Below, in pieces: positions 57,637 through 57,737 of a stretch of 64,000 nucleotides of DNA. The stretch spans positions 8,928,001 to 8,992,000 of the forward strand of contig OZ024760.1 of NCBI GenBank assembly GCA_964016885.1, written 5' to 3'. Position 1 is the stretch's first letter. Every line of letters begins with the position of its first letter. The translations under genes and the position numbers were made by a program. Source of the stretch: Eledone cirrhosa. Its lineage: Eukaryota. The notes under the pieces were generated by a model, which did no database searches, was not told where the DNA came from, and saw nothing but the letters and a program-made list of their open reading frames with translations.

Positions 57637-57737
57637 TTCCCAATAATTTACCCAGTTATTGAACGCTCTGGGGGTAGATATATTGTCTTTAAAGCGTTGG
57701 AATATACGAAACCCCCAGTAGACAACTGATGAGGGAA
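57637..57737 (+). ncRNA. Divergent copy of the K-turn pseudoknotted hammerhead-like motif
   Basis: All five helices are retained with different sequence. Confidence 0.55.

Follow-up and report, generated by a model that had tools for sequence, protein, structure and literature searches.

The 101-nt stretch at positions 57637..57737 of the window (the whole 64,000-nt piece of Eledone cirrhosa DNA that was analyzed, numbered from its first letter) is a predicted hammerhead-type core in which the conserved blocks follow the non-circular order S-G-C, stem II is split, and stem III runs through a k-turn. On comparative sequence evidence, the motif is a real, covarying and apparently unpublished hammerhead variant tied to Naiad-type retroelements. 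There is strong reason to think that this stretch is a decayed copy of a likely self-cleaving S-G-C hammerhead at the 3′ end of non-coding repeats that probably derive from Naiads.

How is the core arranged? The sequence reads in the window as the initial annotation described it, and its parts, all on the plus strand, are as follows.

~57621..57835, plus strand: 5′-truncated 3′ remnant of a ~540-bp non-coding Penelope-like repeat (family C), followed by (TA)n; delimited by BLAST
57636..57640, plus strand: 5′ half of a splint, pairing with 57733-57737 on the 3′ side of CUGAUGA (5/5 pairs in the family register, 4/4 in the register first annotated; 80.5% paired across families)
57641..57661, plus strand: hairpin within the splint, 8 bp with a 5-nt loop (8/8 pairs); putative four-way-junction arm replacing stem II
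57662..57667, plus strand: 3′ half of the splint, pairing with 57693-57698 on the 5′ side of the GAAA block (6/6 pairs)
57668..57678, plus strand: 5′ strand of the stem III extension, comprising the NC helix and the non-bulged side of the k-turn (8/8 pairs with 57711-57718)
57679..57687, plus strand: block S, with a stem III strand, U16.1 (57681), the cut site predicted after A57682 by analogy with known hammerheads (PMC10085705), and a stem I strand
57688..57692, plus strand: 5-nt linker between the distal end of stem I and the stem II strand, near-invariant in the 32-copy alignment described below
57693..57704, plus strand: block G, with a stem II strand, G12 (57699), position 13 (G, 57700), A14, A15.1 and a stem III strand
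57705..57718, plus strand: bulged strand of the k-turn and 3′ strand of the NC helix, with changes private to this copy at 57706 and 57710
57721..57737, plus strand: block C, with a stem I strand, CUGAUGA (57726-57732) and the strand that pairs with the splint

Blocks S (57679-57687), G (57693-57704) and C (57721-57737) thus stand in the type-SGC order. Explicit pairing bears out the annotated claim that this divergent copy keeps all its helices: TTCC/GGAA (4/4), the splint hairpin (8/8), ACGCT/AGCGT (5/5), the NC helix CTGGGGGT/ACCCCCAG (8/8), TAT/ATA in stem III (3/3) and TTGTC/GACAA in stem I (5/5) are all fully paired. The layout needs one amendment, in that A57662 had been skipped; with the pair A57662-U57698 included, the ACGCT helix is 6/6. 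In the predicted fold, stems I and III form as usual around the cut site, and the strands of stem II each pair with the splint hairpin unit. Between blocks G and C, a direct stem II could have at most one pair, 10.1-11.1, which is paired in 71.9% of aligned copies; both would-be stem II strands pair with the upstream splint instead. The 3′ strand of stem I reaches the stem III extension through 2 nt, with no extra helix joining stems I and II, and the helix beyond the k-turn abuts the splint and is tied to stem I by the same 2 nt. With G57733-C57640, C57641-G57661 and A57662-U57698 paired, the splint helices abut without a single unpaired base, and the tandem G.A pairs of the core would then supply the fourth arm of a four-way junction. 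A canonical type I, II or III reading was rejected because the only candidate for a GAAA block after CUGAUGA is the splint-pairing strand itself.

The closest known relatives are the type-SGC hammerheads (HRIMA-1 and its variant; Eckert 2023, PMC10085705), which cleave in vitro and which came from metatranscriptome, metagenome and RefSeq searches. They share with the motif the S, G, C order, a pseudoknotted core, the core bases, and a short linker between stem I and the stem II strand. There are two differences. First, type-SGC RNAs have a direct stem II, whereas the motif has its stem II split by a hairpin-bearing splint. Second, in type-SGC RNAs an extra helix closes around block C, whereas here the k-turned stem III reaches stem I. 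The terms “octopus” and “kink” do not occur in the accessible text and supplement of PMC10085705. A literature search, covering few subscription papers, turned up neither a permuted hammerhead from Naiads or cephalopods nor the combination of a split stem II and a k-turn.

The evidence that carries the structure comes from comparison between families. We aligned 32 copies chosen to span the families (alignment A1); 87.9% of cells are paired, and 25 of 34 pairs show both-sided change. Sliding the partners lowers pairing to 28-46%, and none of 500 shuffles reached the observed value, a control that is inflated because the rows are related by descent. Every helix has both-sided changes, with up to four pair types: 4/5 pairs in stem I, 3/5 in stem III, 6/6 counted pairs in the NC helix, 5/7 in the main helix of the splint hairpin, and 3/5 counted pairs in the splint 3′ helix. 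Stems I and III, which flank the predicted cut site, are 91.9% and 90.0% paired; the weakest column pair is the 10.1-11.1 pair already mentioned. Most core columns of A1 were fixed by the search pattern, so that their invariance is no evidence, but U at 16.1 (30/32 rows) and H at 17 (30/32) were not fixed in this way. Three of the 32 rows (L142-L144) are misaligned at block S, and in the first splint helix the family C rows sit one column out of register. The initial annotation had held that structure rather than sequence is under selection, and a conserved fold in divergent sequence agrees with this. It had also presented the single copy at 57637..57737 as the strongest evidence, which overstates the case because that copy carries five substitutions and cores decay in a neutral-like manner; the real evidence is the covariation between families.

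Most families are predicted to close this fold with a k-turn. The sequence pattern of a standard k-turn (3-nt bulge, G.A and A.G pairs, two helices) is present by column in 23 of 32 rows, or in 22 once one misaligned row is removed, and the usual family layout is a 5-bp stem III, a 3-nt bulge and the standard G.A/A.G pairs. Not every family has the k-turn, since two split-core families (L142:4904-5011 and L144:6774-6881) show a plain 3-nt bulge in its place, together with a splint hairpin of greater length. U.U at 3b/3n, which we take to be the box C/D type, is common among the k-turns here. Standard and Kt-23-type k-turns likewise have a 3-nt bulge followed by G.A and A.G, as described in PMC5061560 and PMC2790904; unlike in those k-turns, the C helix here is hammerhead stem III itself.

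The copy at 57637..57737 forms a standard k-turn only in a shifted register. Family C aligns without gaps to the other families, and the register implied by that alignment gives U at 2n and C-G at 3b/3n; C-G at this position prevents ion-induced folding of k-turns (PMC5061560). A sister family, ~72% identical to C along the unit, has U at 2n and no alternative register, and the accessible text on Kt-23 (PMC2790904) gives U at 2n there, as in family C and its sister. Relative to the sister family, four loop changes in family C make an NC helix of 8 bp and a standard k-turn two pairs nearer the core. The family C majority permits both registers, and the private changes of the 57637..57737 copy remove the old one. 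A candidate register shift in family C, to the 8+3+3 register of the initial annotation as one of two, is the reading that we moderately favor.

What carries the motif? BLAST matches to homologs begin at 57620-57623. Family C has a head-to-tail spacing of 543 bp in locus L029 and occurs as inverted, tandem partial and 5′-truncated copies that share no reverse transcriptase (RT)-coding frame; family B forms head-to-tail units of 634-637 bp, and its best 40 copies are 98-99% identical. Head-to-tail units, inverted 5′-truncated copies, (TA)n microsatellite targets and the lack of an RT frame are together hallmarks of Penelope-like elements, here non-autonomous ones. Animal non-LTR retrozymes, in the available text of bioRxiv 10.64898/2026.07.22.740005, are similar in being short non-coding head-to-tail units with one hammerhead each and a proposed Penelope-like origin; they carry type I hammerheads, whereas the repeat here carries an S-G-C core and so falls outside that class on this point.

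The motif recurs within the window and throughout the genome. A descriptor of the layout finds four motifs in the 64-kb window, with CUGANGA at 15604, 23583, 48625 and 57726 and scores of 22-30. The other three are as follows.

48536..48636, plus strand: family B copy of the motif with an intact core (descriptor; family copies 98-99% identical)
23494..23594, plus strand: family B copy with an intact core, beside an inverted partial copy (descriptor)
15515..15615, plus strand: copy of a family related to B with an intact core and U.U at k-turn 3b/3n (descriptor and alignment)

In all four, G12 lies 16 nt from the cut site and CUGANGA 23 nt from GAAA, so the spacings of the 57637..57737 copy are those of family B. 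Across the 3.0-Gb genome, GAAA-N23-CTGAYGA has 32,015 matches against 2,131 for a reversed control (15-fold). Judged by eye, the first 100 matches listed comprise ~74 from these families, 14 from an unrelated canonical type I family and 12 that look like chance. These numbers suggest that more than 20,000 genomic copies have both core words, GAAA and CTGAYGA, intact. A ~470-bp tandem repeat with a canonical type I hammerhead (L112-L115, L134) fits the spacing pattern by chance.

Other repeats surround the motif in the window. A common dispersed repeat just upstream (57431-57569, also at 54204-54755), presumably SINE-like, is unrelated to it. A two-copy repeat lies at 47495-47610 and 55343-55458, and at the start of its first copy stands a minimal motif resembling a type I hammerhead, whose stem III is palindromic, as it is in other Penelope-like elements. 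Satellite arrays with units of 39 bp and 88 bp occupy 1-1361 and 56184-57237; the minus strand of the 39-bp unit reads CTGATGA, with no other hammerhead part beside it.

The link to Naiads comes from published consensus sequences. Craig et al. 2021 (PMC8557442) found no canonical hammerhead in the Naiads; they mark Naiad_Ovul with nothing beyond “HHR_half_core” and describe the cephalopod Naiads as long inactive. In the accessible part of its supplement, the consensus 3′ ends of Naiad_Obim and Naiad_Ovul (identities assigned by file order) contain, by eye, the splint, the hairpin, block S, block G, a standard k-turn, the 23-nt spacing and block C, and the loop of their splint hairpin is that of some families here. 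Other Naiads in that material, from distant phyla, show by eye the same split stem II and core in unrelated sequence. For one core word, the S-G-C arrangement was clear by eye in 7 and probable in 2 of the 30 sequences at places 26-55 of 62. Other orders were also seen. Two nematode Naiad 3′ ends (places 34 and 35) appear by eye to have the order C-S-G with a direct stem II, a type-CSG order known from only two sequences in the accessible part of Eckert 2023 (PMC10085705), and one Naiad end in the PMC8557442 supplement reads S, splint, G, C, with stem II split and the splint between S and G. As described in PMC8557442, Naiads resemble the repeat here in their tandem and inverted 5′-truncated insertions and (TA)n targets. 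They differ in being coding, whereas the repeat here is without a coding frame, and the long inactivity ascribed there to cephalopod Naiads contrasts with the 98-99% identity of family B copies.

A coding partner was sought in the same genome. A Naiad remnant with an N-terminal endonuclease retrieved 65 relatives, most of them with stops; the Naiad peptides of this genome resemble those published from octopus. Among 30 Naiad remnant loci of this genome, one (L209) ends in an intact S-G-C core with the 23-nt spacing and three more show decayed homologs; the splint hairpin was not clear in these 30 loci. The remnants belong to a different sequence family from B and C and look old and broken. Searches of this genome found no RT-coding frame (N-terminal GIY-YIG plus RT) joined to family B or C, and no DNA-level match of the repeat 3′ end to a coding Naiad copy. 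It is therefore the motif that points to Naiads as the source, and the repeats probably derive from them. A GIY-YIG search returned only elements with a C-terminal endonuclease among the matches listed (30 loci, and 20 longer stretches), and those examined have cores in canonical order with no S-G-C motif attached. Open frames of 938-1096 aa survive in these Penelope-like elements with a C-terminal endonuclease, and family B is very young (98-99% identical) as against the old, broken Naiad coding remnants (L031-L060; L092, L093; L180-L209). A search of the genome with the Naiad_Ovul core motif gave one match, below its control; of two back-translated Naiad motifs, one had no match in the genome and the other had 16 against 47 in its control, with 2 of the 16 reading as Naiad remnants. 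RT fragments near motif copies were rejected as partners, being Hydra-like or unrelated. At L147 and L008, broken Hydra-like Penelope elements lie near motif copies, apparently as independent insertions.

How might the motif work? In the proposed mechanism, the tandem G.A pairs of the core would become one arm of the four-way junction and the short linker would tie the ends of stems I and II. By folding back the extension of stem III, the k-turn would bring three helix ends together at a second junction, and the linker and the k-turned arm would together replace the usual loop-loop contact. Head-to-tail transcripts would then fold and cut themselves once per unit, here after A57682, and by analogy with retrozymes the resulting unit-length RNAs could be reverse-transcribed by a Penelope-type enzyme in trans. 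Purifying selection would act on the source elements, and inserted copies would decay neutrally.

The 5′ ends of genomic copies bear on this mechanism. We chose 72 distinct copies by their sequence on the 3′ side of the predicted cut and scored their 5′ ends by eye and post hoc; positions +1 to +13 hold 8 of these ends, -6 to 0 hold 2, and -59 to -7 hold 3. An excess of truncated-copy 5′ ends just 3′ of the predicted cut is suggestive at best, and much the same pattern would arise if the reverse transcriptase stalled at the fold. Starts within a base or two of the cut are found in 2 of these 72 copies, in 2 of 100 and in 2 of 3 loci, and in none of 13 partial family B copies.

That so few copies start exactly at the predicted cut fits an alternative in which a genuine, selected fold functions chiefly as the protein-binding or packaging signal of a Penelope-type enzyme, with cleavage weak, protein-dependent or lost. 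The split of stem II points the same way, since a direct stem II is present in all tested type-SGC RNAs and its absence here counts against self-cleavage. So do the many U.U pairs at 3b/3n, given that box C/D k-turns fold only with protein (PMC5061560, accessible part), and the precedent of the PAc hammerhead of Anolis, whose cleavage is assisted by the element's protein and is dispensable for insertion in vitro (PMC11167929, accessible part). Against a binding signal stand the excess of exact CUGAYGA and GAAA words at fixed spacing and the conservation of U16.1 and H17 at positions that the search left free, both of which are what catalysis requires, and the same core being kept in Naiads of distant phyla. 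We therefore regard this alternative as unlikely, and self-cleavage in the source elements as the preferred reading.

Is the 57637..57737 copy itself still active? Core position 13 is G at 57700, so this copy departs from the hammerhead core CUGANGA/GAAA/NUH, and the initial annotation had left undecided whether the change is decay or a tolerated variant. Checking the homologs for the ancestral core word, as had been suggested, gives GAAA rather than GGAA: A13 is present in 29 of 29, and of 30 aligned family C copies 23 keep the whole core. The pattern has 153 matches in the family; counted by eye, the first 100 include 86 with GAAA and 1 with GGAA. Relative to the majority of the 29 homologs, the copy has five motif substitutions in 101 nt (57647, 57700, 57706, 57710 and 57735), compared with a family median of 3. 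In genomic copies (the first 100 matches, by eye), changes affect 17 of 400 core sites and 20 of 500 adjacent sites; because the core decays as fast as its surroundings, inserted copies would be decaying neutrally, with selection acting on source elements. According to older mutagenesis work, changes at A13 cripple the hammerhead core. Most core mutations sharply reduce activity (Perreault 2011, PMC3088659, in the section examined), and a literature search for activity data on A13G returned nothing. The homolog comparison indicates that A13G in this copy is decay, and the copy, which is old, is probably inactive or much slower. It could instead be an active ribozyme that tolerates A13G and is kept by selection: all its helices survive, its two private changes in the k-turn region spare the shifted k-turn, one other copy among the 100 listed has GGAA, and some natural core variants stay active (PMC3088659). 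Against this stand the uniform A13 of the homologs, the 5′ truncation and above-median substitution count of the copy, the equal decay of core and non-core sites, and the absence of A13G from the active variants named in the examined section of PMC3088659, which together make a tolerated A13G very improbable and leave decay as the preferred reading.

The proposed check against shuffled sequence was also run. In 5,000 shuffles of the segment that left its core bases fixed, 23 gave any match and none reached the observed score of 30 (top score 25); 60 block-shuffled windows gave 1 weak match (score 16). Minimum free energy folding of the 57637..57737 copy is without significance (z -0.67), as expected from a decayed, pseudoknotted RNA, and a family copy closer to the majority has z -3.66; Rfam returned no match to the 57637..57737 motif at the gathering score and no hammerhead at E<=10. 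The idea that the helices are inherited repeat symmetry and the hammerhead reading a chance fit could appeal to that folding result, to the missing Rfam match and to the relatedness of the copies by descent, but it is largely refuted, and scarcely credible, given both-sided change throughout the helices (as many as four pair types), the 15-fold excess over control, and the same layout in unrelated sequence in Naiads of other phyla.

What are the implications of this hammerhead variant? Extrapolating from these sequence comparisons, we lean toward a broader proposal: Naiads across animals may carry active, non-circular, four-stranded-core hammerheads in which stem II has become a four-way junction. 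In cephalopods, these would be closed by a k-turn that slides along stem III between families and perhaps makes cutting depend on a k-turn-binding protein of the host, and their tens of thousands of non-coding copies would form a new retrozyme-like class, some of it recently mobile. The 57637..57737 copy, although probably dead itself, contributes a divergent family to the covariation, along with a candidate for a natural shift of the k-turn register. If the proposal is correct, there are three consequences. First, it would explain why Naiads, dominant in many invertebrate genomes, seemed to be without the hammerhead of other Penelope-like elements, because standard descriptors require a direct stem II and a circular order. 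Second, non-circular hammerheads would go from ~580 predicted, mostly environmental sequences to tens of thousands in one animal genome. Third, the hammerhead core would tolerate a junction in place of stem II and a k-turn as its tertiary brace.
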